Origin: a virus
Lineage: Duplodnaviria > Caudoviricetes
Virus record (IMG/VR): IMGVR_UViG_3300028840_003294
Location: 1 to 52,289 of that record
Reading direction: 5' to 3' (one strand)
DNA: 52,289 nt
Of this stretch, positions 11,289-52,289 are shown one piece after another. Below the pieces are notes generated by a model. That model did not search any database, was not told where the DNA came from, and saw only the letters and a program-made list of their open reading frames with translations. Numbering within the stretch: the stretch's first letter is position 1; each line of letters opens with the position of its first letter. The translations under genes and the position numbers were made by a program.

Positions 11289-14200
11289 TTACTCTTTTTT
11301 TAGCCGCCGCTTCAAGGTTTGCAGCTCGATCGTCCGGTAACGACGGTTGAATTTCTTGAATTCATTCTGCATCCTCGAGTCCTTGACAGTCACCCCGGCT
11401 TTCCGAAGCTCGCGGACCCTCTTCTCTGTTGCCTTCACAATTTCCTCAATCGCCAAAACATTTTTGTGCCGCTTGTAGAAGTCAGCCGCGGCCTTCGGAT
11501 CGGTTTTCGTGAGCTCGTCGTAGGTCTCTTTCTTGATCCAGTAATCGCCCATGTTGGCGCGGTACATATTGGGAGCGAAAAACTGCGACTCTTCGGCAAA
11601 GAAAGATTTAAGGACAGGAACATCCCGGGCCGAAAGCGTTTCCCCCGCAGCGCCCTTTGAAAGCAGACTCAGCCCGCGAATCACAGTATCGCCAAGACCT
11701 CCAAGCGCGGCGCCGATCGCATAGTCGATGTCTTCCGGGGAAATGTCGATCCCAAGGTGTTTATACATGAACCGCGTCATCTCTTTCGAAGGCTTTGAGA
11801 CGCTTGAAAAATAACGGTTGTAGTTTGGAGTCGGCACGCCGTACTGTTCAGATCGTGCGAACTTTGAAGGCTCTGGTCGAATCGGTCCTCCCCAAAAATT
11901 GCGGTTCGCGGAGATGTCATAGACGGGGTCAAGCCACGCCGGCATTCCCATTTGGACGAGGCCAACGAGCGTCGTCGGGTCATTGTCGCCAATCGGGTTG
12001 AAGGCTGAGAGGCCGGCTGAGAGGATATGCGCTGTGCCCTCCCAGGCTGCGTCTTTTGTTTCGCTTGGCCGATCCAGTGCGCGATTGACGGCGTCGGCGG
12101 CAAACACTCCAGCTGCGGGGAACAGATTAAATCCCCAAGGCAGCGGAATCTTAAACCGTTTCCCCTCTCCCCCGGGGACCATGAAAATGAGGTTCCGCTT
12201 TTTCTCCCATGCGGGGATTTTGTCCCAATAGGGGATTTTGTCTTTCTCGTCCTCGCCGCCAACCCAACGCATCATCGAAGCGTGCATGAATCCGTAGCCC
12301 ATCGCTCCGAGCATCATCTTTTGAACCTGTCGGTTCTTGGCTACCGAGTCAATGACCATTTTTGAGCCCTGCAAGGAGGCATTGGCGAACACATACCACG
12401 GGCTTAGATATTGCGCGACTGTGCCCTGTTGCGTGAAATCGACAGTGATGTCTCGCGCCAGCTTGCCGGCCCTGTCTTTAGAAAGGCCAATTTCGAGCCC
12501 GCGCTCAAAAACGGAGAAGCGCAACATTCCTTCGACTGCGGCGTTGTAATCTTCAATCCAATTGATTACAGATTTGACGGTGCTGAAAACCTTATTCTGC
12601 TCACCCTTGGTTTGCTCGATTTGAGCCTGAATCTTCCGCATCTGATCCGCTAAATCGGGAATCATCCAGAACGCGGTTTCCCCGCCGGCGAGCTTGAACT
12701 GCTCGATTCTCTGGCGCTTCGTGGCGTCCATTTGGTCGAGCGTCCCTTTCGACTGGCGACGAGCGTATTCTCCGAGAAGCGCCGCTGCCTCTGGAACGCG
12801 CTTCATTGTCTTCAAGCCAAAGCCCTCAAACTTCTTTTCGCCGCCGAGCTTGATCCCGGCGGTGAGAGCATCGCGGACAGCGTTCGGAATCACAAATGCG
12901 GGGTTTCTCGAGGTTGCCATCTTCGAGATGTAGCGGTTGATATTTACGCCAGCCTTCAAGATCGGGTTCAAGTCTTTTGACGAGCCAACGTTATTCAACG
13001 CAGAGACGAATTCAGCCATCCCGGGGCTGACGTGGCGAATGTAGTGCAGCTCGCCGTCGATCCAAACGTTGTAAACGTTGTCCTTGACCACCGAGAGCCC
13101 GTCGATTTTGGTTTTTACGGTCTGCGTCTTTTCATCCCACACGAGCCGCGAATCCGGGCGGTCAATCTCAAAGAGCTTCTCGCCGTTTACGTCCTTGACG
13201 TTCTTCATCTTCTGGACGAAATTCCAGACCGTCTTTGCAACGCGATTCTTTTCGGCCCGCACGGCCGTCTCCATCGCGTCCGTCATCAGCTCTACAGTGG
13301 CCGAGTGTGTTGGGAAAGACCGCCGGCCGAGGGCACGATGAGCGGCAGGGCGCCGACCCGGGTTATACCCGCGGCCGGTGTTCGGGAGATGGATCTTGTC
13401 GGCTATGCCAAGGCCACGAGCAGCTCGAGCCAGGGCCCGGTGCCACATCTTACCGCCGTACATCTCAATCTCGGGGATCGGGGGGCGCCTGCCGTTGGCG
13501 ATGATGTCCAAGATGTCCGGGTCTTTGCCCCGCATCGGAGCGTAATGCTTGTAGTCCCGCCATTTTTTGAGCTCGTCTTTCGAGAGCAAGCCGGCACGGA
13601 ATAGCGTTTCTTCTTTCCAGCGGACGATGTCCGAAAACCGGCGCGAAAGCCGACCGAGCTTGCCTCTATAGACCGTATCTGGTCCGAGCTCCCCATCCCA
13701 TTCCACAAGCCCAAGCTCGCGCATCTCCTCGAGAGCGGCCTTTGCGTGCTCGTCTGTGATTCCAGAGTGAGGCGCCTCTCCAGCCTCGTCCATTCGCCTG
13801 ATTTCAGCGATTTTCTCTTTTTCGCGAGCCACGGATTCGCGCTCGAGGGTTCTCATTTCGACGCGCTTCGGCTTGGCTGAGAACCCGCGCTCGTTGAAGA
13901 ACCGAACCTCTGCAATTCCCGACTCGCGGTTGACCGCTACCACCTCGCCCTTGGCGTTGTTCTCGAGCGACCGGACCTTAGTGCCAATGGACAGGTGCTT
14001 CGTTTCCAGCTTCGCAATTTTGGCCTCTGCCTGTTTAATTGGAAGCGTCACATTCGCCATGCGAATTTTCGGGTTTCGCTCAAGCGCATGAGCGGCCATG
14101 CGGAACAAATCGAAGTCCTCGAGATGAATCCCCGACTTTGCTATGTCGGTAATCAACGGTTTGAAGAGCTTCTCTTCGACCCAATCAACAAGGGCGCCCG

Positions 14201-17200
14201 CACGCGCCTGGAAATTCTGCGCCTTGAGGTAGGCGTCGAAAATTTCGTCGAGCTCTTGACCAACCTCCGTGAGTTTTTCCTGAATTGTGCGAATCGGAGC
14301 TATGCGATCGAAGAGTGTTTTCTCCGCACGGTTTCGGTAATACTCCGTGAGCGTGTGGTCTTCAATCTGCACCCCGGGGTGCTGATCCCCTGAAAGCTCG
14401 TGAGCTCCAGACAACGAGTAAACAGTCTGCGCGTCACCGCGGTCGATGAGCTTTTCTGTGCCGGCGCCCTCGATCGCATTCCGCCACGCTTCGGGGAACT
14501 CTTCAGGAGCGAGCTTCCGATAATCGAACGCTTCTTCTGCGGCCCGCCTCGCACTAAGAATATCGTTCCGAATCGTCCTTAAAATCTTTTGCCCCGTTGG
14601 GTCGGTGATAATCGCCGCCTCTCCCTTTTGAGTCTCAAAAATCTCGCCGCTTGCGATTTGCTCCATGATGCCGGCGGCGCCTTCGATGTCGGCAATTTTT
14701 AGACCCGCAACGTTTTCGAGAAGAGACTGCGCGAACCGCTGGAGGAATTTGAAAATTTGGGTCGCTCTCGGCTCGGCCTCTGCTCGCGTCTCGGCCCACG
14801 CCTGATACGCTTGGGCCGCGCCCTCTTCGGTCTCGTACACCTTCAGCAAGGTCATGCGTTGATCGTTCGTGAGAACGTTATGAAACGCGAAGTGAAAGGA
14901 TTCGTGAAACACCTCTTGGGAAATGCGCTTTGGATTGTAGAGAGAAATCAAATGAGCCCCGCTCATGTCTCCCTGCTGCCCAATTCGATACCGCCCCTGC
15001 ACCTTGACGGTGCCGGCGTCCAGTGCGGCCACCAAATCTTCGGGTTTTATGTTTCGATTCTCCGCTGCCGTTTTGATGAACTCGTCGTCGATCGTCGGGC
15101 CGGGACCGCCAACGGCAACATGCAGAACTGGTTGGCCCTCCCTCGTCAAGCGGAACAGGCCCCCCTGTGTGTGCCGCACATTCCAGCCGCGGAACGCCTT
15201 TTGAATTTTTGGAACGAGCTTCGCCGCTCGAGCTCGAACGCCCTTGTCTTCTTTGTCCTGCTCTGCTTTTCTTTTTCGTGCCTCGCCCTCTTTTTTCGTG
15301 GCGATTTGAATGCGCCGAAGCCTGAGAATCTCTTCGCTGATTTTTTTCTTTTCTGCCGGGTTGGCGTTGTTGAGCTGCGCCGTTAGGTCTTTGATCCGGC
15401 TTTGAATCGTAACCCCGCTCTCGACGTCCTCGGCCCGTGCCGGGGCCTCTGTCGTAGCGGCCGGCTCGAATTCGGTTCGCCTTGCAATCTCGTCCTCGAG
15501 AACGATTGCGAGATCGTGGATCTCGGGATCGAGGCTTTGCACGAGCTCCTCGTCTTTTCTTGTGAGTATTTCGATCGCTGATTCGCCGGCCTCGATGCGC
15601 TTGATGAATTCCGCGACCGCTTTCGGGCTGTTGTCCTGCTCGCGGGCAACGCGGTACATCTGGTCAACGACGTCGTCCGCAGTTCGACGCCTGCCGAACA
15701 TTCTGCGCTCAACGTCTTCGATGGTTTCCTCTGGCGCTTCTTCCCTTGTAAAGCGTTCGAGGATGTTACGCTCCGAGACCGCAGCCTCGAGCTCGAGCGC
15801 CAGGTCTCGCGCCTCGCCGCCGAGCTGTTCTTCAATTTGAACGTCCGACTCGTAAATCTGGTTGACCGTTTGGCCTTCCTCGAGGCCCCTCACGAGTTTC
15901 TGCACGATAGCGGGTTCAATGTTGTTCTTGCGCTGGAACTCGAAAATGTCGTTTTTGACTTTGTCGATTTCGCGCCGGCGCCCTGGCTCTTCCCGCCGCT
16001 CATCTGGCATCTCGATAAATTGGTCCGCGGCTTCTTGTTGCGCGAGGTATTCTTCCGGCGAGATGTCCGGTTTTTGCAAGGCGGCAATCAGGTCGCCCAC
16101 CGTAGCACTCGGCGGCAAATATCCTTCTTCCTTAACAACCTCAAGCATTTGATCCGGCTTCATTCCGTCTTTTCTGCGATAACGAACCGGAACGCCTTCG
16201 CGGCCTTTGTCTCCGTAAATTTCCTCTGAGAGATAGCCTCCTGTGTGTTTGCCGATGCCACCATTTTCGAGAACAATTTGATGAATGGTTCGACCGAGCC
16301 GACGCTGCCCCTTCAGCCTGCGAAGGTGTGGATGTAAGGCTATGACTTCCTCATCAAGCACGACGCCCTTGCGGATCGCTTTTTTGAGCACCGCCTCGTG
16401 GTCTTCTTCGGCCCCGGTTTGCTCGTATTCTTGCGTTGTCATCTCCCACGGATTCTTCGGCTTCTCGATCGGCGGGAGCGGCGTAACTGGTTCCGGGGTA
16501 GCACCCTCTTCGACTTGCTTCCCCTCGTCCAGCCTCATAGCACCGCTCTCAACGCCGTGAGGCTGCGTCGGAGCGGCGGGGCCACCCACTACGGGCCCAC
16601 CTACCGCCGGAGCCGCAGGGCCACGGCCAACGCCCTCAGAGAGATTGCGCTGTCCTCTTTGGCTTGGCGGCGGCGGGAGCTCTGCAAAGGTTTCGGTTTC
16701 TGCTTGCATGCGCTGGCCCGCGACAAGCTCATCGGCTTTGTTGATCGTCGTGGCGAGCTGGCGCATCGCCTCCTGTGGGGAGAGGCCCTGCTCGCCGGCA
16801 AGATCAACAATCGCGGCTTGAGTGTCTTGGTCAAGGTCGCCAGTAACGAACGCCTGGAACAGCTCCGGTCTCACCTTCAGCCAGTCTGGAGCATAGCCGG
16901 CGCGAGCGGCCTCAACACCTTCTGGCGGCGCTAATCTGGCGGACCCGCCCGGGCCATAAAGCGGCGCCACGTCAACGCCGCTCGGAGCAGGCGACCCGGG
17001 CGGGACCACAAACTCTTCCGGCCTTACGTCCGGTTGTGTTTCGGGGATCGGCTCTGTTTGAACAAACTCAGGGACCGCGGGCCCCATGTCAGCCCGAACC
17101 GCATCGGTTCGCGCTGCAACCTCTTCTCCGGTTGGACCCGGCCCTACCTCGGTCTGCGCTTGAATGTTCCCGGCGCCCCCTCCAAAGGGGCCCATCATCG

Positions 17201-18440
17201 TTCCCATTAACCCCGCTTCTTCGATCGACCGTATTACATTGCCCCACGTTTCGGATCGACCTTCCGGCGTCGTGAATGCTTCTATGTTTTCGAGCTCGCC
17301 ACGGTTCATGCGAACAAAATCGGCCGCGGCAGACTCAACGAGCGTTTGTGGAACCTCCGTCAAAACCTCTTCGGCGCCCTGCCGAAGCGCCTCGAGACCC
17401 TTCCGCGCAAGCCATGTTTTGAAAGATTTCGCAGTAATCGGATTTCTCGCAAGCAGCCGGCCGACTGGAGCGAACTCAAGAGCCCCGGTCAAAACACCAA
17501 GCGTTGAGGCGGCGAGCTGTGCGTCTTCTCCTGTGACGCCCTCGGCCTCGAGGTCGGTGAGAATTGAGCCGGTCTGCATCGCCGCGGCGTCCGCAGCCGC
17601 AAGCGCGGGGTTTACCATCGCAGTAGCAACCATCGGCCCCATAACCGGCGCCTGTTCACCGAAAAGGCCGGCGGCATATTTGGCGGGCCCCAATAGTGGT
17701 TCCTCTTCCGACGCTTCTGCGAGCGTTTCAAACCGGCGCTTCGGCGCGATCATTTCATTGCCAACGGCGGCATCGACCGCCACCTCTCTCGCCATTTCGG
17801 CCACCGGGCCAGTCGCTTCGTGCATTTTCTTCGCAACGTCGGTTTGATAAAGCGGGTTGGTGTAGAGTTGCGAGGTCGTGCCAAGGGGGATAACCGGCGC
17901 CTGCTCAAGCGCCATCGTAAACGAGTCGGCAAGGTTTGCAGCCCCGGAAAGTCTACTCGTCAATGCTGTGCTACCGCGCTGGACGCCGCGGACAAGATCC
18001 CCTGCTATTTCCGCGAGCTGCTTTGTGATCGGGTTGTAGCCCTTGGTCGAGTAGATATATTTTTCAACGACATCGCCGTAATCGCTTTCAATGTCTTCGG
18101 TTCCGCTGATCGGCGCTCGCGCCACGCTATACGTTTCTTCCTCGTTGGCCCCGTCTGTGTCAACCACGATTCCGCGAAGGGCCCGACGCTCATCCGGAGT
18201 GAGCATCTGCCAATAGGGGCCCGCCTGAGCGAGCTTATTGAAAGCGGCGTGTCGTTCAATGCGCGGGAGGGAGAGAAAGTCTTGACTTGAGGGCAATTCG
18301 TAGAGCTGCCGACGCTGCCAAACGGCGCCAAGGTTATAACCTAGCTCCTCCCACTCATCACGCAGCCTGAAGATTTCTTCTTCTGGCGTGTCGTCGGGGA
18401 AATGCGCGTATTCTTCTCCAAACCTTACGCGGACGACCAC
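11289..18440 (-). CDS. Giant internal virion/ejection polyvalent protein with HExxH and C-terminal LPD38-like domain
   Basis: 2383 aa; VFHESFH; YWDKIPAWEKKRNLIF...IPLPWGFN...NRNFWGGPI...SPEDIDY; last gene of the structural arm. Confidence 0.75.
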   Translation of the reverse strand: MVVRVRFGEEYAHFPDDTPEEEIFRLRDEWEELGYNLGAVWQRRQLYELPSSQDFLSLPRIERHAAFNKLAQAGPYWQMLTPDERRALRGIVVDTDGANEEETYSVARAPISGTEDIESDYGDVVEKYIYSTKGYNPITKQLAEIAGDLVRGVQRGSTALTSRLSGAANLADSFTMALEQAPVIPLGTTSQLYTNPLYQTDVAKKMHEATGPVAEMAREVAVDAAVGNEMIAPKRRFETLAEASEEEPLLGPAKYAAGLFGEQAPVMGPMVATAMVNPALAAADAAAMQTGSILTDLEAEGVTGEDAQLAASTLGVLTGALEFAPVGRLLARNPITAKSFKTWLARKGLEALRQGAEEVLTEVPQTLVESAAADFVRMNRGELENIEAFTTPEGRSETWGNVIRSIEEAGLMGTMMGPFGGGAGNIQAQTEVGPGPTGEEVAARTDAVRADMGPAVPEFVQTEPIPETQPDVRPEEFVVPPGSPAPSGVDVAPLYGPGGSARLAPPEGVEAARAGYAPDWLKVRPELFQAFVTGDLDQDTQAAIVDLAGEQGLSPQEAMRQLATTINKADELVAGQRMQAETETFAELPPPPSQRGQRNLSEGVGRGPAAPAVGGPVVGGPAAPTQPHGVESGAMRLDEGKQVEEGATPEPVTPLPPIEKPKNPWEMTTQEYEQTGAEEDHEAVLKKAIRKGVVLDEEVIALHPHLRRLKGQRRLGRTIHQIVLENGGIGKHTGGYLSEEIYGDKGREGVPVRYRRKDGMKPDQMLEVVKEEGYLPPSATVGDLIAALQKPDISPEEYLAQQEAADQFIEMPDERREEPGRRREIDKVKNDIFEFQRKNNIEPAIVQKLVRGLEEGQTVNQIYESDVQIEEQLGGEARDLALELEAAVSERNILERFTREEAPEETIEDVERRMFGRRRTADDVVDQMYRVAREQDNSPKAVAEFIKRIEAGESAIEILTRKDEELVQSLDPEIHDLAIVLEDEIARRTEFEPAATTEAPARAEDVESGVTIQSRIKDLTAQLNNANPAEKKKISEEILRLRRIQIATKKEGEARKRKAEQDKEDKGVRARAAKLVPKIQKAFRGWNVRHTQGGLFRLTREGQPVLHVAVGGPGPTIDDEFIKTAAENRNIKPEDLVAALDAGTVKVQGRYRIGQQGDMSGAHLISLYNPKRISQEVFHESFHFAFHNVLTNDQRMTLLKVYETEEGAAQAYQAWAETRAEAEPRATQIFKFLQRFAQSLLENVAGLKIADIEGAAGIMEQIASGEIFETQKGEAAIITDPTGQKILRTIRNDILSARRAAEEAFDYRKLAPEEFPEAWRNAIEGAGTEKLIDRGDAQTVYSLSGAHELSGDQHPGVQIEDHTLTEYYRNRAEKTLFDRIAPIRTIQEKLTEVGQELDEIFDAYLKAQNFQARAGALVDWVEEKLFKPLITDIAKSGIHLEDFDLFRMAAHALERNPKIRMANVTLPIKQAEAKIAKLETKHLSIGTKVRSLENNAKGEVVAVNRESGIAEVRFFNERGFSAKPKRVEMRTLERESVAREKEKIAEIRRMDEAGEAPHSGITDEHAKAALEEMRELGLVEWDGELGPDTVYRGKLGRLSRRFSDIVRWKEETLFRAGLLSKDELKKWRDYKHYAPMRGKDPDILDIIANGRRPPIPEIEMYGGKMWHRALARAARGLGIADKIHLPNTGRGYNPGRRPAAHRALGRRSFPTHSATVELMTDAMETAVRAEKNRVAKTVWNFVQKMKNVKDVNGEKLFEIDRPDSRLVWDEKTQTVKTKIDGLSVVKDNVYNVWIDGELHYIRHVSPGMAEFVSALNNVGSSKDLNPILKAGVNINRYISKMATSRNPAFVIPNAVRDALTAGIKLGGEKKFEGFGLKTMKRVPEAAALLGEYARRQSKGTLDQMDATKRQRIEQFKLAGGETAFWMIPDLADQMRKIQAQIEQTKGEQNKVFSTVKSVINWIEDYNAAVEGMLRFSVFERGLEIGLSKDRAGKLARDITVDFTQQGTVAQYLSPWYVFANASLQGSKMVIDSVAKNRQVQKMMLGAMGYGFMHASMMRWVGGEDEKDKIPYWDKIPAWEKKRNLIFMVPGGEGKRFKIPLPWGFNLFPAAGVFAADAVNRALDRPSETKDAAWEGTAHILSAGLSAFNPIGDNDPTTLVGLVQMGMPAWLDPVYDISANRNFWGGPIRPEPSKFARSEQYGVPTPNYNRYFSSVSKPSKEMTRFMYKHLGIDISPEDIDYAIGAALGGLGDTVIRGLSLLSKGAAGETLSARDVPVLKSFFAEESQFFAPNMYRANMGDYWIKKETYDELTKTDPKAAADFYKRHKNVLAIEEIVKATEKRVRELRKAGVTVKDSRMQNEFKKFNRRYRTIELQTLKRRLKKE

Positions 18441-41403: not shown

Positions 41404-43174
41404 CGCGCACCTCCGGAAGCTCGAATTCTGTGAGCCATTCTTGCAGAAGAAGAACGAGAACATCAAGTGCATTGCCCGCAATTGGCGAAATCGGTGTTCC
41501 GCTTGAAGCGGCTTCGCCAAGAGAAAGAATTGACTCTGAAATCTGCGGCCATTTGTCAACCAGGGCCAAAGCCTCTTGCTTCTTGACCGCCTTCGACATG
41601 GTTTGAGAGTTGACCTTCGTTTCGAGGATCACTTGATCGCGCCAGTATCCAGGCGGGAATTCTACGAGCATCGCTTGAAGCATTTGAGATTCCTGCGGCG
41701 ATTGTGCGTCAACAAAAATTCGCAAGGACTCCGGATAGAACTGTCGATATTGGCTGTACTGAATTTCGATGATCCGAATAAGGAACCTTCGGAATCGTGT
41801 CATCAGCGCGTAAAGCGGCTGCATCGCTTTTTCCATGACCGAGGTTGTCCCGGTTGCAGTCGGCCTTTCCGCGAGCTCGTGCCCGGAAAACGCGAGCGGG
41901 ATATTCGAGGCATCGTGCATGTGACGCTCGATCCTTTCGAGCATCGTGAGCAGGAACGTCACCTCGCCGCTTGTGAGTTGTATTTCGTGGATCGCATCTC
42001 CGAGTTTGTCGATGACGAGCTTATCGACCTCAAGCAGCCCGGGGCCTATTCGCCCATCTTGGAGCATTTGCGAGAGGCCAAGGTCTTTCAGCGCGACCAT
42101 GAGCGGCTCAATCGACCGGACCCCCGCATCGAGCAGAATGTTCACGATGGCTACATAAGCGCGATGCAATTGATCGAGAACGAACACCATTGAAACGCCA
42201 TCGAGCGAGCCCGCGACCTGATGCCAGCAAAATGTTGCGTAGGACCGGGGGAATTCTTGATAGAAGGGATCGTGTGCCGCGAGCCACGTTTTCCGCTCGA
42301 GATCAACAATGATTACGCACTCGTTCCCCTCGTAGGTTGTATAGACCTCGAGTGGATGAAGCACGGTGCTTTCGGAACGGTCCTTTTGTTGATTGTCGAT
42401 CTTGTGGGCGATGTAGAGCTCGATCTTGTCCTCGTCTTCTTCGGGCCGCATTGCGGAATCGCCAACAGCAAGCGGGTTAAGGTCTGCTCGGTAATATCCC
42501 TCTTCGACCTTTTTGCGAATGTCCGCAACTCTCATGTCGAGCTTTTCGGCCCACCAAGGAGCCTCGTCGATGTCGGCACAGGGGATCGGATGATAAAGCC
42601 TTCTCGGATCGAGAACGTACGGCTTGTTCCCCTCGAACACCACTTCTTCCCGGCTGTTTTCGAACCGCTTGCCATCCGGCCCCACATCCCAAAACCTTAT
42701 TTTTCGCACCTTGCGAACATAGGGGATCTTTGCGGTGCATTTTGGGTAAATCTGTGCGTGACGGATTGCGTCGTCGATGAAGGCGTCATAGTCCGAGCGG
42801 TCTGCGATCCAGTCAAGAAGGATGTCGTGGGTTGCGGCAATTGACGGGAAGCCGGGGCGGGCCTTGGCGACGAACACCGTATCTTGCGCGGCTATGGGGT
42901 TCGAGAGGTTTGCGCTCGCCTGCTTGCATTTCTCGAAGGTGATTGTGAAGTCGAGCTGCGATTCCGTCCGAGATGTTGCGTCCGGTTCGCCCGTCGCCCA
43001 ATAGTTCGCTTCGCAGTCTTCCCAAATGGGCTCGATTTCTTCTTTGCGGAATTCAACGACTTTGTCGATCTCGTCACAGAGCTTTCGGACGAATTTGTCG
43101 AAGTCTTCATTTTCGCCAAGCCTCGTGGCAATTGGCTGGATTGGATAGACGGACTCGGGCCCCTCGTTCATCAT
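41201..43174 (-). CDS. Portal protein
   Basis: 657 aa directly after TerL; W...EANY, DPRRLY, RPTATGTT. Confidence 0.85.
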   Translation of the reverse strand: MMNEGPESVYPIQPIATRLGENEDFDKFVRKLCDEIDKVVEFRKEEIEPIWEDCEANYWATGEPDATSRTESQLDFTITFEKCKQASANLSNPIAAQDTVFVAKARPGFPSIAATHDILLDWIADRSDYDAFIDDAIRHAQIYPKCTAKIPYVRKVRKIRFWDVGPDGKRFENSREEVVFEGNKPYVLDPRRLYHPIPCADIDEAPWWAEKLDMRVADIRKKVEEGYYRADLNPLAVGDSAMRPEEDEDKIELYIAHKIDNQQKDRSESTVLHPLEVYTTYEGNECVIIVDLERKTWLAAHDPFYQEFPRSYATFCWHQVAGSLDGVSMVFVLDQLHRAYVAIVNILLDAGVRSIEPLMVALKDLGLSQMLQDGRIGPGLLEVDKLVIDKLGDAIHEIQLTSGEVTFLLTMLERIERHMHDASNIPLAFSGHELAERPTATGTTSVMEKAMQPLYALMTRFRRFLIRIIEIQYSQYRQFYPESLRIFVDAQSPQESQMLQAMLVEFPPGYWRDQVILETKVNSQTMSKAVKKQEALALVDKWPQISESILSLGEAASSGTPISPIAGNALDVLVLLLQEWLTEFELPEVRDVLDVQGSVVAGQAIAEAVSRYETIIQQLNQRAIDLEAKVVDLGGETGESNPAGPGQEPAGSPEATA

Positions 43175-47859: not shown

Positions 47860-48236
47860 CCCTCCTCGGCGCTCGATAAAAATTTGTAGTGGCTCTGGCT
47901 TTCTTTGACGTCGAGATGCGGGCACACCCTCCAAGTGACGACTTCATACGTGTCGTAGGTGACGGGAAAAGTCTCAAGCACCCAAGCCGGGAAAAACGTT
48001 TTTTTGAAGTGCTGCCACCACGTTCGCGGGCAACGAATTTTCGTTACGCGCTCTTTTCTTCCCGCAACATCCACCATCATCGACACAAGGATCTCGTCTC
48101 GCATGAAATCGCGGCTCTCGTGAACTTTGACTTTTCGAAGCATCGTTGGGTCGATCGTGACGTCCACCTGTCGTCTGACCTTCTCGAACGCCTCTTGAAG
48201 AATCGTCCCGGTCGCGTATGGGCTCATCGCCATCAT
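47856..48236 (-). CDS. Hypothetical protein
   Basis: PRTWWQHFKKTFFP motif; coupled. Confidence 0.7.
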   Translation of the reverse strand: MMAMSPYATGTILQEAFEKVRRQVDVTIDPTMLRKVKVHESRDFMRDEILVSMMVDVAGRKERVTKIRCPRTWWQHFKKTFFPAWVLETFPVTYDTYEVVTWRVCPHLDVKESQSHYKFLSSAEEG

Positions 48237-49084
48237 CCCGCCCCCTTCAACCACTCCTCGAACGGGGGAGCCTTCCGCGGCGGAAAATCACCCGCAGCGT
48301 CGGAATACTCCTCCCATCGACTGTGATTCCCGAATTTGTTCCGATCGCTCTCTCGCACCGTGTCGTACAACCAGCCCCCTTCGGCCGTGGGCCGGGAAAC
48401 CCCCACCCGCTGCTTCGCCCCGTCTTCGTTCCGTCGCGTGATCCACGTCCCCACCGCCGCCTTCCACGACTTCATCTTGTTCTTCCCCACCATCCAACCC
48501 TTCGACTCGTAAAAGTCCACGAACGCCTGCGGGTCGATCCGCGTCTCCCCCCTCTCCTCCAAATACCCCCGAACCTCATCCACCGACGGCGGCTTGAATA
48601 CACTCCGTTTCTTCTTCTTCTTAGGAGTATTGTCATCTACATCTACATATACACTTACAGGTACAGGGTCCACTTCCTGTCCGACTTTGTCCACCCCATG
48701 TCCACCACTGTCCACCAATGTCCCCCTCTGTCTCCTCTTGTCCTCTGCCCACTTCATTCTCTGCGACTCTCGAGCCTGCTTCTTCCGGTAATACTCGTAA
48801 TTCACCACCCGCCACCTGTTCGGACCCTCCGGAACCAAACGCCTCCCCCCGTGATCCGGACTCGTGCTGTGCTCATCAGGGCCCGTCAAGACCTCCAACG
48901 CCGAACGGGTCTCCTCGAGCTCCATATTCGCTAACCGCGCCATGCTCTCGACCGTCCCCCGAAAACACCCCTCGCTGTCACACCGCAACAGACACACCGT
49001 AAACAGCTTCCATACTGCCGGCGGGTGCTCGTTGATCGTTGAAAAAAGCATGTCATCCCACAGCATTACGAAATGTGGAGTCAC
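48233..49084 (-). CDS. Replication initiator / replisome organiser
   Basis: N-terminal wHTH-like region ending WRVVNYEYYR; C-terminal FKPPSVDEV...FVDFYESKGWMVGKNKMKSWKAAV; GTGA coupling. Confidence 0.8.
   Translation of the reverse strand: MTPHFVMLWDDMLFSTINEHPPAVWKLFTVCLLRCDSEGCFRGTVESMARLANMELEETRSALEVLTGPDEHSTSPDHGGRRLVPEGPNRWRVVNYEYYRKKQARESQRMKWAEDKRRQRGTLVDSGGHGVDKVGQEVDPVPVSVYVDVDDNTPKKKKKRSVFKPPSVDEVRGYLEERGETRIDPQAFVDFYESKGWMVGKNKMKSWKAAVGTWITRRNEDGAKQRVGVSRPTAEGGWLYDTVRESDRNKFGNHSRWEEYSDAAGDFPPRKAPPFEEWLKGAG
48605..48745. repeat. Putative replication origin: phased TGTCC iterons plus AT-rich tract
   Basis: TGTCC-like units at 48667, 48678, 48688, 48699, 48709, 48719, 48729, 48739. 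Confidence 0.7.
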
Positions 49085-49281
49085 GACGGCTCCTCCATTT
49101 CTGATTCCTGCTCGAGAACCATGAACCGCTCCGCTGTGGCTGAATACGGGCGCGTCGATCGACTCTCCCACAACGCAATCGTCACAGGCGTAGTCTCCAA
49201 CATCTCCGCCAATTGCACTTGCGTCACCAACAATTTCAAACGTAGCGCCTTGACCCGCTGGCCCCACGTCATCTCGTCCAT
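49081..49281 (-). CDS. XRE-family HTH regulator (Cro-like)
   Basis: VKALRLKLLVTQVQLAEMLETTPVTIALWES...P. Confidence 0.85.
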   Translation of the reverse strand: MDEMTWGQRVKALRLKLLVTQVQLAEMLETTPVTIALWESRSTRPYSATAERFMVLEQESEMEEPS

Positions 49282-49547
49282 CAAAAACCCCTGAGATTCT
49301 GGCATTGAGAATAGCCTCCAACAACTTAAAAAGTCGGGCAAACTCTTTATAACCTCGTAAGCCCTAAAAGTCAATGGTTCCGGAAAATTATTTCCCACAA
49401 CTAAACTGCCACCCGATCGCCCAAATTTTTGCGTAAATTTCTGGAGGGGGAATAGTTCCCCCCCCGTGGGGCGCTCGTGGGGGTGGACGGGGCCCGGGTG
49501 TTGGTGCTTCGTCGTGGTGCCCGGGCTCCCGGTCGCGTCGATATCGA

Positions 49548-49575
49548 GGTTGACATAATAGCAGTTATCGGACGC
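49548..49575 (-). other. dif-like XerC/XerD recombination site
   Basis: - strand GCGTCCGATAA-CTGCTA-TTATGTCAACC (11-6-11), compared with E. coli dif GGTGCGCATAA-TGTATA-TTATGTTAAAT. Confidence 0.8.
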
Positions 49576-49832
49576 TAGCCCGCTAACCCGTGAAGACTCA
49601 ACGGCTTAACCCCTTGGGCCCGGGCTCCCAGTCTCAACTAAGGCAGGGTGGCGCCGAAACCGACCGCACCCGGGGCTCGACTCCCGCCCGGATGGTTGCT
49701 CCCGGGGGACTGGGGACCGCTGATCCTGAGATCCGGACCAGCCGAGCTCGCCGCGCTTGCGGTTCGGGAATCCTCTCCCCCTCACAAAGCCCGGGTTCGA
49801 GCGATGGCAGGGCGGGGAACGGATGAGAGATC

Positions 49833-49883
49833 CAATGACGTAGGGCGTCAGCATTTCACGTCACTCAATGACGCCCACCGTCA
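49833..49883. promoter_or_regulatory. Two palindromic operator/UAS boxes CAATGACG-N5-CGTCA
   Basis: TGACG-taggg-CGTCA (49836-49850) and TGACG-cccac-CGTCA (49869-49883), 33 bp apart. Confidence 0.75.
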
Positions 49884-49924: not shown

Positions 49925-49941
49925 TTGGCATGGATTCTGCA
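49925..49941 (+). promoter_or_regulatory. Sigma54 (RpoN) -24/-12 promoter
   Basis: TTGGCATGGATTCTGCA with exact GG-N10-GC spacing; IHF-like AACAAAGGACTTA just upstream. Confidence 0.7.
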
Positions 49942-49992
49942 TATTCAATCAATGCGTTGTCAGAGACGCAAAAAACCAAAGGGGGTTCAATC

Positions 49993-50889
49993 ATGGGTTC
50001 GAAATTCTACAGTGAGAAAGCGGAACAGGCAGCGAACAAGATACTGGAGGCATTTGAGGAGCCCGGGAGGCTTCCCGCGGCATTGAAGGACATCGCCTTG
50101 CCAGCCACGGAGCGCCACGCGGGGAGTTACAGCATCAGGAATCAAATGTTGGTTTGGATAAACGGATACACGGACGCCGCGGGGTTCAAGCAATGGAAGA
50201 AGTACGGACGCGCCGTCCGCAAAGGCGAGCGCGGGTTCCCCATTCTCGCACCCGTGACCGCGACGTTTACCGCGAAGGATACCGACCCAGAGACGGGCAG
50301 AGAGATCGAGCACCCCGTGACCTACATCCGCGGATGGCGCCACGTTACCGTCTTCGGGATCGAGCAGACCGACATCGTGAATGAGGAGCTCTGGCAGAAA
50401 TACAGCGAAGCAGCGGCGAAGAATGCCGAGTTTCTCGAGAATCTCCCATGGGTCGAGGTGGCGCGGTCATGGAATCTCGCCTGCGGCGCCGACGGTCGCT
50501 TGCTCGAATACGGCGCCCGGGGTTGCTACACACACGGAAAAGCGATCGAAATCGGAGTAGAGAATCTCTCGACGTGGGCACACGAGCTCGTTCACGCGGC
50601 AGACGACCGCCTTGGAACGTTGACAAAGAAGTCCGGACAGCAGCCCGACAATGAGTTAGTTGCGGAGCTCGGAGGGGCTGTGCTGTGCCTCTGTGCCGGA
50701 CACGAGACCGAGGCGGACATCGGCGGAGCATGGGAGTACATCAAAGGCTATTCGAAAGACCCCGTCAAGGACGCCGGAAACCTCTTGTCTCGCATCGTAA
50801 CGGCCGTTGCTCTCATCATGGAACAAGCGAAGAACCCCGACGAGACCATTCCGGCCGTTAACCCCGAGCTCAAGACCAAAGCAGCGTAG
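49993..50889 (+). CDS. ardC: ArdC-like anti-restriction protein (ssDNA-binding N-domain plus zincin HExxH)
   Basis: YSIRNQMLV, GFKQWKKYGRAVRKGERG..ILAP, VFGIEQT, WAHELVH, ELVAELGG. Confidence 0.85.
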   Translation: MGSKFYSEKAEQAANKILEAFEEPGRLPAALKDIALPATERHAGSYSIRNQMLVWINGYTDAAGFKQWKKYGRAVRKGERGFPILAPVTATFTAKDTDPETGREIEHPVTYIRGWRHVTVFGIEQTDIVNEELWQKYSEAAAKNAEFLENLPWVEVARSWNLACGADGRLLEYGARGCYTHGKAIEIGVENLSTWAHELVHAADDRLGTLTKKSGQQPDNELVAELGGAVLCLCAGHETEADIGGAWEYIKGYSKDPVKDAGNLLSRIVTAVALIMEQAKNPDETIPAVNPELKTKAA

Positions 50890-51911: not shown

Positions 51912-52249
51912 ACGACGAATTCAAACTCACGAGCGAACACGCTAACCCCGGGCAAGGCTCAATGTTCGACGACCAAGAGCCCGCGCCCGAGGGAAAACAC
52001 AGGGCCGAGCTCCTCGTTTATCTTGCCACGCGAGGCGGGTTCGCGATGGTTTCGGACTTCCTCGAAAGCCTGAATTTTGAGGTTATCACAACGGGCGCCT
52101 GTATCAAATGCTGGGCACCGCGGCGAATGGTTGACCACGGGCCCGGCACCCGTGCTTATTGCCAGGACTGCTATACGCACACAGTCTGCCGAGCTCTGGA
52201 CATCGAAGCGAACAACATTCCCGGGTTCGTTAGCCCGAAACCAGAGTGA
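51908..52249 (+). CDS. Zinc-finger hypothetical protein
   Basis: CIKC...YCQDC. Confidence 0.7.
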   Translation: MNDEFKLTSEHANPGQGSMFDDQEPAPEGKHRAELLVYLATRGGFAMVSDFLESLNFEVITTGACIKCWAPRRMVDHGPGTRAYCQDCYTHTVCRALDIEANNIPGFVSPKPE

Positions 52250-52289
52250 AACCGAGAGAGGGTCCGCCCGCGGGGCCCTGTTTCGGTCG
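52146..52289. repeat. Terminal direct repeat, right copy
   Basis: Identical to 1-144. Confidence 0.97.

Follow-up and report, generated by a model that had tools for sequence, protein, structure and literature searches.

How would a tailed phage with no recognisable recombinase make use of a site built like the bacterial chromosomal site dif? In the literature sampled here, integration by host Xer recombinases is described as established for filamentous phages (inoviruses), gokushoviruses and some tailless DJR phages. Host-enzyme borrowing through dif has so far been described for small tailless phages only, and the phage considered here is a tailed one of 52 kb. The open literature that we searched yielded no dif-type attP in a tailed phage; subscription papers and supplements lie outside that scope, and a prior description is possible. 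The question is raised by a 28-bp element in a Caudoviricetes record of IMG/VR, whose whole stretch of 52,289 nt is referred to as the window.

A dif-type site in the control region of the window

An initial annotation had placed an 11-6-11 site on the minus strand of a non-coding control region, and we find its sequence and coordinates exactly as described (Table 1). The site has an inner ATAA/TTAT dyad and a XerD arm of the form TTATGTNAANN. No start-codon ORF of at least 60 aa spans positions 49548-49575. The surrounding divergent gap measures approximately 530 nt, from the last possible start of the leftward operon (49398) to the rightward ArdC-like gene (49930).

Table 1. Features of the dif-type site and its surroundings in the window
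Feature	Position	Strand	Sequence, basis or remark
28-bp dif-type site	49548..49575	-	GCGTCCGATAA-CTGCTA-TTATGTCAACC; 11-6-11
XerC-type arm	49575-49565	-	GCGTCCGATAA
Spacer, 6 bp	49564-49559	-	CTGCTA
XerD-type arm	49558-49548	-	TTATGTCAACC
GC-rich 16-nt repeat	49519..49534	+	GCCCGGGCTCCCGGTC; direct repeat family D2; 13 nt from XerD-arm side
Second 16-nt repeat copy	49618..49633	+	GCCCGGGCTCCCAGTC; family D2; 42 nt from XerC-arm side
GC-rich non-coding DNA, ~250 nt, on XerC-arm side	49576..49830	.	Conserved blocks in comparison with L467
XRE-family HTH regulator gene, first of leftward operon	49081..49398	-	PF01381 HTH_3, 23.0 bits, cut-off 23
Predicted replisome-organizer / DnaD-like replication protein, 284 aa	48233..49087	-	Domains of homologs
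Two TGACG-N5-CGTCA palindromes	49836..49883	.	Inverted repeat I2, just upstream of ArdC operon
ArdC-like anti-restriction gene, first of rightward operon	49930..50889	+	PF08401 ArdcN 1.8e-10; phrog_7245

The pattern ATAA-N6-TTATGTNAA, allowing at most one mismatch, matches the window once, against an expectation of 0.02 from shuffling (a match in 2 of 100 shuffles). We also scanned 21 bacterial genomes (~105 Mb) that had been selected because their dif belongs to this type. Nineteen of them contain the pattern exactly once; the matches number 24 in total and 2 for the backwards control, and the background amounts to roughly 0.001 per 52 kb. It behaves as a dif-specific, once-per-chromosome signature. 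The exact 28-mer has no match in other IMG/VR contigs.

Other explanations for the site, namely a promoter, a terminator, a structured RNA, a tRNA or an Rfam family, were all negative. The hexamer TTGACA inside the site equals the -35 consensus; the promoter scan returned no sigma-70 promoter that uses it, and a -10 partner is absent. The GC-rich stretch of ~400 nt around the site gives no fold signal (z of +0.99 and -0.10), and a search of Rfam at E<=1 gave no match for the region.

Completeness and gene content of the phage genome

The record carries direct terminal repeats and a CheckV completeness of 100, in agreement with the earlier description of the genome as complete. An exact repeat of 144 nt is shared by positions 1-144 and 52146-52289. 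Since open reading frames continue past both ends of the record, this repeat is probably an overlap of the circular assembly, which would leave a genome of about 52,145 bp. In two of the metagenome runs that hold the phage (X1 and X2), the Logan contigs are each 52,171 nt long.

We also searched for a recombinase in six frames with the profiles PF00589 and PF00239. Zero matches were obtained at E<=1 and control genomes matched, which upholds the earlier statement that the phage has no recombinase. A Pfam sweep of the 66 ORFs yielded 24 families, among which there is no integrase, resolvase, transposase, ParA/ParB or DUF3653 (XafT-like) protein; most ORFs received no family assignment, and the absence of a recombinase applies to recognisable families only. 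The same 24 families contain no CI-type (S24) repressor or other hallmark of lysogeny, and the phage could be lytic. There are no tRNA genes in the window. The SU10_adaptor domain found in the genome is consistent with its earlier designation as podovirus-like, and the recombination module consists of a PD-(D/E)XK exonuclease and RusA.

A protein of 2383 aa (11289-18440, minus strand) matches phrog_14770 and phrog_616, both of unknown function, over its C-terminal ~700 aa (E = 1.6e-96). Meanwhile, the proteome-wide Pfam sweep, which did not specify the ORF, returned an LPD38 'large polyvalent protein' domain together with many CarboxypepD_reg/SdrD_B/transthyretin-like repeats.

Organization of the divergent control region

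Two operons leave the control region in opposite directions. The leftward one begins with the XRE and replication genes and continues with genes for the terminase, the portal/adaptor, an Amidase_3 endolysin and the 2383-aa virion protein. In the rightward one, the ArdC-like gene is followed by genes for a methyltransferase, PD-(D/E)XK-type exonucleases and RusA. A listed ORF of 363 aa (48233-49398, minus strand) at the head of the leftward operon is in fact two genes with an overlapping stop and start (GTGA), one encoding an XRE HTH protein of ~74 aa and the other the 284-aa replication protein. The XRE gene likely starts at the ATG at 49305, which would give a protein of 74 aa.

The homologs of the 284-aa protein carry PF09681, PF07120, PF14297 or PF13730, and some of them are named 'phage replisome organizer'; the protein itself has no Pfam or PDB match. 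Judged by these homologs, the neighbor of the site is predicted to be a replisome organizer and not a recombinase.

Both 16-nt repeats are partly conserved in the alignment with L467, a related contig described below. The copy at 49519..49534 is a possible accessory or regulator site. On the other side, the non-coding DNA at 49576..49830 includes a conserved block that directly abuts the XerC arm, and this stretch is a candidate accessory sequence or ori. The two TGACG-N5-CGTCA palindromes probably act as operators, and the XRE protein may be what binds them.

In the same samples we notice a contig of 31,963 nt, present in X1 and X2, which is similar to the ArdC-like gene in two short segments (window 50388-50634), at <90 % identity and with a joint skipping 245 positions. 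It is probably another element with a related ArdC gene.

Conservation of the site in a related phage

The phage of the window is nearly an orphan. Its terminase finds best matches of only ~23 % identity in the phage collection, and no relatives were recovered through the terminase alone. Several other routes were abandoned. The 363-aa ORF was swamped as a handle by its widespread C-terminal domain, and a metagenome scan with the replisome-organizer alignment was swamped as well, with a best match of 36 %. Two contigs, L002 (from the record G001) and L003 (from G002), have the ArdC-like gene in common with the window and nothing else, and they were rejected as relatives; the dif-type site of G001 is an independent case.

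One relative, the 12.4-kb IMG/VR contig L467, was found through P0007, a replisome-organizer homolog with 49 % identity. It is syntenic with the window, and the identities are 50 % for the XRE protein, 53 % for the organizer, 64 % for the methyltransferase, 58 % for TerL, 62 % for the portal and 66-77 % in the capsid region. L467 carries the site AGGTCTGATAA-GTATGA-TTATGTAAACT, which precedes the replication gene by ~470-490 nt, has the orientation seen in the window and lies 230 nt from the contig end. It is the single dif-type match in 11.6 kb, even with up to 2 core mismatches allowed. The earlier reading had named a lack of conservation in related phages as evidence against a Xer site; in this one relative we find the opposite, a perfect core kept at the corresponding position and with the orientation unchanged.

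In the alignment the two sites are in register, and they agree at all 12 core positions and at 7 of the 16 others. The differences lie in the spacer and at outer positions of the arms, the latter variable among bacterial dif sites too. Against a non-coding background identity of 49 %, the 12/12 core identity has P = 2e-4. In overall identity, 56 of the 468 sliding 28-column windows of the control region equal or exceed the site, which indicates that the control region is conserved as a whole. Given these other conserved blocks, the conservation argument rests on which positions are kept, and it is based on one relative, L467; a second one, L471, ends short of the control region.

Comparison with chromosomal dif sites of bacteria

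The dif sites published for E. coli, B. subtilis and F. alni (PMC3025954) show the same build as the phage site, and the same layout appears in the dif sites given for B. mallei (PMC2731167) and Sorangium (PMC2650636). We scanned one genome per species for 185,579 species. The phage core with its own spacer is absent from all of these genomes. With the relaxed pattern CSNATAA-N5-ATTATGTCAAC, at least 120 stretches were matched, and 80 loci were analysed. The pattern leaves the terminal position free, and 75 of the 80 listed sites end in T, which indicates that the listed loci are real dif sites.

The initial annotation had proposed comparing the 28-mer with bacterial dif sites. The closest chromosomal sites among the matches listed (L116, L096, L122) are identical to the phage at 21 of 22 arm positions. 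The xxGTCCGATAA arm of the phage is common to 12 of the 80 listed sites, which belong to Myxococcales, delta-proteobacterial and Acidobacteria-type MAGs. The spacers differ: the phage has CTGCTA and the best-matching hosts have NNNNTA, with only the last TA in common, and some related bacterial sites among the listed matches share 4 of 6 spacer positions with the phage. The idea that the site could identify the host holds weakly. Arms matching at 21/22 positions come from at least three bacterial groups, so the site does not pin down the host.

We record two kinds of genes beside dif in the bacterial MAGs. In several of them dif directly adjoins a ParB-like gene (L127:5884-6720, L140:1-999, L162:231-1415), and ParB_N and HTH_ParB domains are shown for the dif-adjacent gene of L127. 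An IS1595 transposase gene occupies this place in other MAGs (L159:2157-3119, L104:2-289). The phage record G033 also encodes an IS1595 transposase, ~1 kb from its own dif-type site and 36 % identical to a dif-adjacent bacterial one.

dif-type sites in other viral genomes

The pattern used in the bacterial scan matches at least 120 IMG/VR contigs, compared with 16 for the backwards pattern, an enrichment of at least 7.5-fold. Some of these contigs may be small IMEXs, or provirus calls that include the dif of the host. The statistics below come from the 80 loci listed, which hold 84 sites. Of these, 64 end in T, as in bacterial dif. Intergenic positions account for 46 of the 84 sites, where ~13 are expected (P = 4e-17), with 0 of 16 in the control and 45 of 80 for bacterial dif; the intergenic calls were made by a crude gene caller at 85 % coding coverage. 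A purine at spacer position 5 is found in 24 of the 84 viral and 5 of the 80 bacterial sites listed (P = 2e-4), and the viral dif spacers are more variable than the bacterial ones.

Many of the large records that bear such sites lack a tyrosine recombinase domain. We picked 33 of them and searched 32; PF00589 is absent in 22, and the 19 records with a completeness of at least 90 % include 12 without it. Dif-type sites occur in five complete DTR genomes (G031, G033, G039, G044, G049) of 48-59 kb and GC 41-67 %, which are mutually unrelated; 0-3 ORFs are shared in comparisons among the five or with the window. None of the five has a PF00239 Resolvase domain, and their 57 largest ORFs include SU10-type portals (3 ORFs), one P22-type portal and a terminase. 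The genes adjoining the site vary, with HTH_17 in G031, HNH and the small terminase in G049 and a methylase in G044. In G001, a terminase and a portal lie beside an internal, non-coding dif-type site.

The position of the sites within contigs was also considered. Among the 27 whole-contig loci, 6 lie within 200 nt of a contig end, with 1.5 expected (P = 0.005; control 0/9), and in 7 of 23 large linear records the site is at most 3 kb from an end, with ~2.9 expected. This enrichment fits assemblies that break at a recombining site, and we take it as only a hint.

Several large dif-bearing viral records hold more than one site (G042, G044, G032, G038, G055). G042 has an inverted pair with identical cores 763 nt apart (C1:26629-27410), and the complete genome G044 has an inverted pair 12.4 kb apart (C1:4877-17312). 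Arrays in direct orientation, each of 3-4 sites whose spacers differ, also occur among the multi-site records, of which further loci are G032:C1:15298-16254, G038:C1:9367-14111 and G055:C1:30918-44258. The arrangement is reminiscent of pdif modules or of arrays of IMEXs, and Xer recombination could cause inversions or exchange modules in these phages.

In G001 (L002:1380-1560), the intergenic DNA around the site is AT-rich and contains AAGTGTCTC four times, twice to either side of the site, which adjoins the gene of a 206-aa protein with a sigma-70 region-4-like HTH. The AAGTGTCTC copies may be operators or accessory sites that flank a Xer core.

Taken together with the window, these genomes lead us to a tentative proposal. 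Integrase-less Caudoviricetes of ~40-60 kb with dif mimics might form a widespread, polyphyletic class of 'tailed IMEX' that lysogenise or persist through host XerCD. Some members would carry site arrays or inverted pairs as Xer reshuffling modules, and the window and L467 would represent one lineage.

Search for integrated copies and for the host

The three runs that hold the phage are sediment and seawater metagenomes, which were examined as Logan contigs; two of them, X1 and X2, may represent the source sample, or else a single data set that was filed twice. A single contig of 52,171 nt bridges the site in X1 and in X2. No joint or loose end at the site was seen in the contigs of the three runs, where the uncovered bins of X3 are uninformative. 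The genome assembles only as a free circle.

Neither were relatives of the terminase found in the 21 best-matching bacterial genomes, in phylum samples (351 and 351 genomes, and another 351 from the same phylum as the first) or in order samples (39, 45 and 25 genomes). This search covered about 800 sampled genomes in all, a coverage at which absence weighs little. A distant terminase match in G195 (E = 1.4e-14) was set aside as not a relative. Beside the bacterial dif sites we saw no prophage, only the IS1595 transposases, the ParB-like genes and a few weak matches to proteins of dif-bearing viruses.

One viral record, G053, was considered as a dif-flanked prophage and rejected, since both sites belong to a 770-nt repeat, the contig resembles a tandem or a concatemer, and it has no host junction. 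Its two identical sites (L474, L476; C1:1-770 and 42055-42823) are 42,054 nt apart within a direct repeat of 99.5 % identity. The DNA diverges after the repeat, and a second stretch of 390 nt matches at 79 %. A lone extra XerD arm is located ~40 nt upstream of each site. A tandem array, a concatemer or a mix of strains could explain this arrangement.

Joints between phage and chromosome, or related prophages flanked by dif, had been suggested as the place to look for integration, and none was found in the contigs of the three runs or in the ~800 genomes sampled. The original proposal was that the phage integrates at host dif or resolves multimers there. What stands is a genuine dif-type element in a phage without a recognisable recombinase; both functions are still proposals.

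A probable substrate for host XerC and XerD

From the sequence comparisons above, we consider the 28-mer to be a dif mimic that selection has kept as a substrate of host XerC and XerD, with a probability of roughly 80 %. How the phage would use such a substrate is less certain. By analogy, its most likely use is as an attP of the IMEX type for insertion at host dif, to which we give somewhat less than an even chance. This reading draws on the precedent of the gokushoviruses (PMC7062461) and on the VGJ-type and 'full-length' IMEX sites (PMC5357621, PMC12715192).

Under insertion at host dif, the genome would circularise after infection. Host XerC would bind the GCGTCCGATAA arm and XerD the TTATGTCAACC arm. 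The Xer complex would then synapse with the host dif, and strand exchange would insert the 52-kb genome at dif. The phage spacer, unlike those of the hosts, may limit FtsK-driven excision, and the XRE regulator might act as the repressor. Xer binding, integration itself and the direction and order of strand exchange are inferred.

The same enzymes could instead act on the phage's own DNA, either by resolving multimers of a circular episome or pseudolysogen, or by cyclising terminally redundant DNA after injection. We regard this as the main alternative, though a less likely one than insertion at dif, and several features would suit it. The predicted replisome organizer adjoins the site, and the ArdC-like gene is of a kind typical of plasmids. 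The PD-(D/E)XK exonuclease and RusA module would generate multimers, ~250 nt of conserved non-coding DNA lie on the XerC-arm side, and assembly yields solely the free circle. In G049, the site between the HNH and small terminase genes is near the packaging start. However, no ParA/ParB, partition or plasmid-maintenance domain is found among the 24 families of the 66 ORFs. A lytic phage that packages from concatemers needs no multimer resolution. In addition, the accessory sequences are only candidates, and the hosts are not enterobacteria.

Alternatively, the 28-mer may resemble dif and yet be bound by a protein other than Xer, as an operator, an origin element or another binding site, for example for the XRE regulator or the replisome organizer. 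Several other conserved blocks in the control region would fit such a site, with 56 of 468 windows equally conserved overall, and so would the GC-rich repeats that flank it, the TTGACA within it and the HTH genes beside the sites in the window, L467, G001 and G031. An operator, however, would be expected to co-vary with its regulator, not to keep the 12 dif-defining positions while the rest drifts, and it would not be expected to match chromosomal dif at 21 of 22 arm positions. TTGACA comes without a -10 partner, and the motif recurs in mutually unrelated phages with different adjoining genes. We therefore regard a non-Xer site as improbable.

A chance resemblance without function deserves very little credence. 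The whole genome was scanned for many kinds of motifs, so some post-hoc match is expected, and 2 of the 100 shuffles did produce one at <=1 mismatch. Nevertheless, L467 has a perfect core at the homologous position and orientation, as the sole match in 11.6 kb; the likeness of the arms to real dif exceeds what the search pattern asked for; and the enrichment of at least 7.5-fold and the intergenic bias extend across viral contigs.

If tailed phages do make use of dif mimics as well, a missing integrase would no longer be a safe marker of a strictly lytic lifestyle, which bears on lifestyle predictors and on the choice of phages for applications. Should the 'tailed IMEX' class hold, the standard lifestyle predictors would wrongly call such phages virulent. 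The dif region would be a place to seek large prophages, and the 28-bp motif would provide a cheap marker for such phages in metagenomes.

Relation to known Xer systems

The sites cer and psi are Xer core sites for the resolution of plasmid multimers, with accessory sequences on the XerC-arm side. They depend on PepA with ArgR or ArcA, which act on the accessory sequences. Like them, the window has a Xer core on an autonomous replicon and non-coding DNA on the XerC side. The lox-Cre system of P1, in which the recombinase is encoded by P1 itself, would be a functional analogue if the site served the phage's own DNA; the enzyme is phage-encoded in P1, whereas it would be supplied by the host here. 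The pdif modules described for Acinetobacter plasmids (PMC7399989, bioRxiv 2024.04.09.588662) have a counterpart in the multi-site phages above, where several dif-type sites occur, some of them in inverted pairs; the window has a single site.

The tailed Vibrio prophages described in PMC11630473 rely on their own integrases. Large non-phage IMEXs are reported to enter dif and persist there through XerCD, such as the gonococcal genetic island of 57 kb and EludIMEX-1 of 29 kb (PMC5357621), and judging from the size given there for the gonococcal island, 52 kb is no obstacle for an element of this kind. Both are genomic islands, and the XerD arm of the imported site is divergent as described; in the window, by contrast, the XerD arm is the better conserved one.

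The IMEX phages, like the window, are without an integrase, and their dif-like attP has a putative counterpart in the window, whose two-arm site is closest to the VGJ type or to the 'full-length (28-bp)' mimic as described in PMC12715192. They are non-tailed. The window has no DUF3653 XafT-like protein and would need no attP in the form of an ssDNA hairpin.

For the gokushoviruses (Microviridae), experiments showed that host XerC/XerD integrate the double-stranded circle, and that both arms of the dif-motif and host xerC/xerD are needed for this integration, which is reversible (Kirchberger & Ochman 2020, PMC7062461). The spacers of these motifs are reported to be more variable than that of the host (PMC7062461). 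As described there, gokushoviruses are 4-5-kb ssDNA phages of enterobacteria with prophages flanked by dif, whereas the window is a 52-kb tailed dsDNA phage of marine sediment and seawater metagenomes, for which the contigs and genomes searched here hold no integrated form. Nevertheless, the two share a full 28-bp, two-arm copy of dif in non-coding DNA, without an integrase and with a variable spacer.
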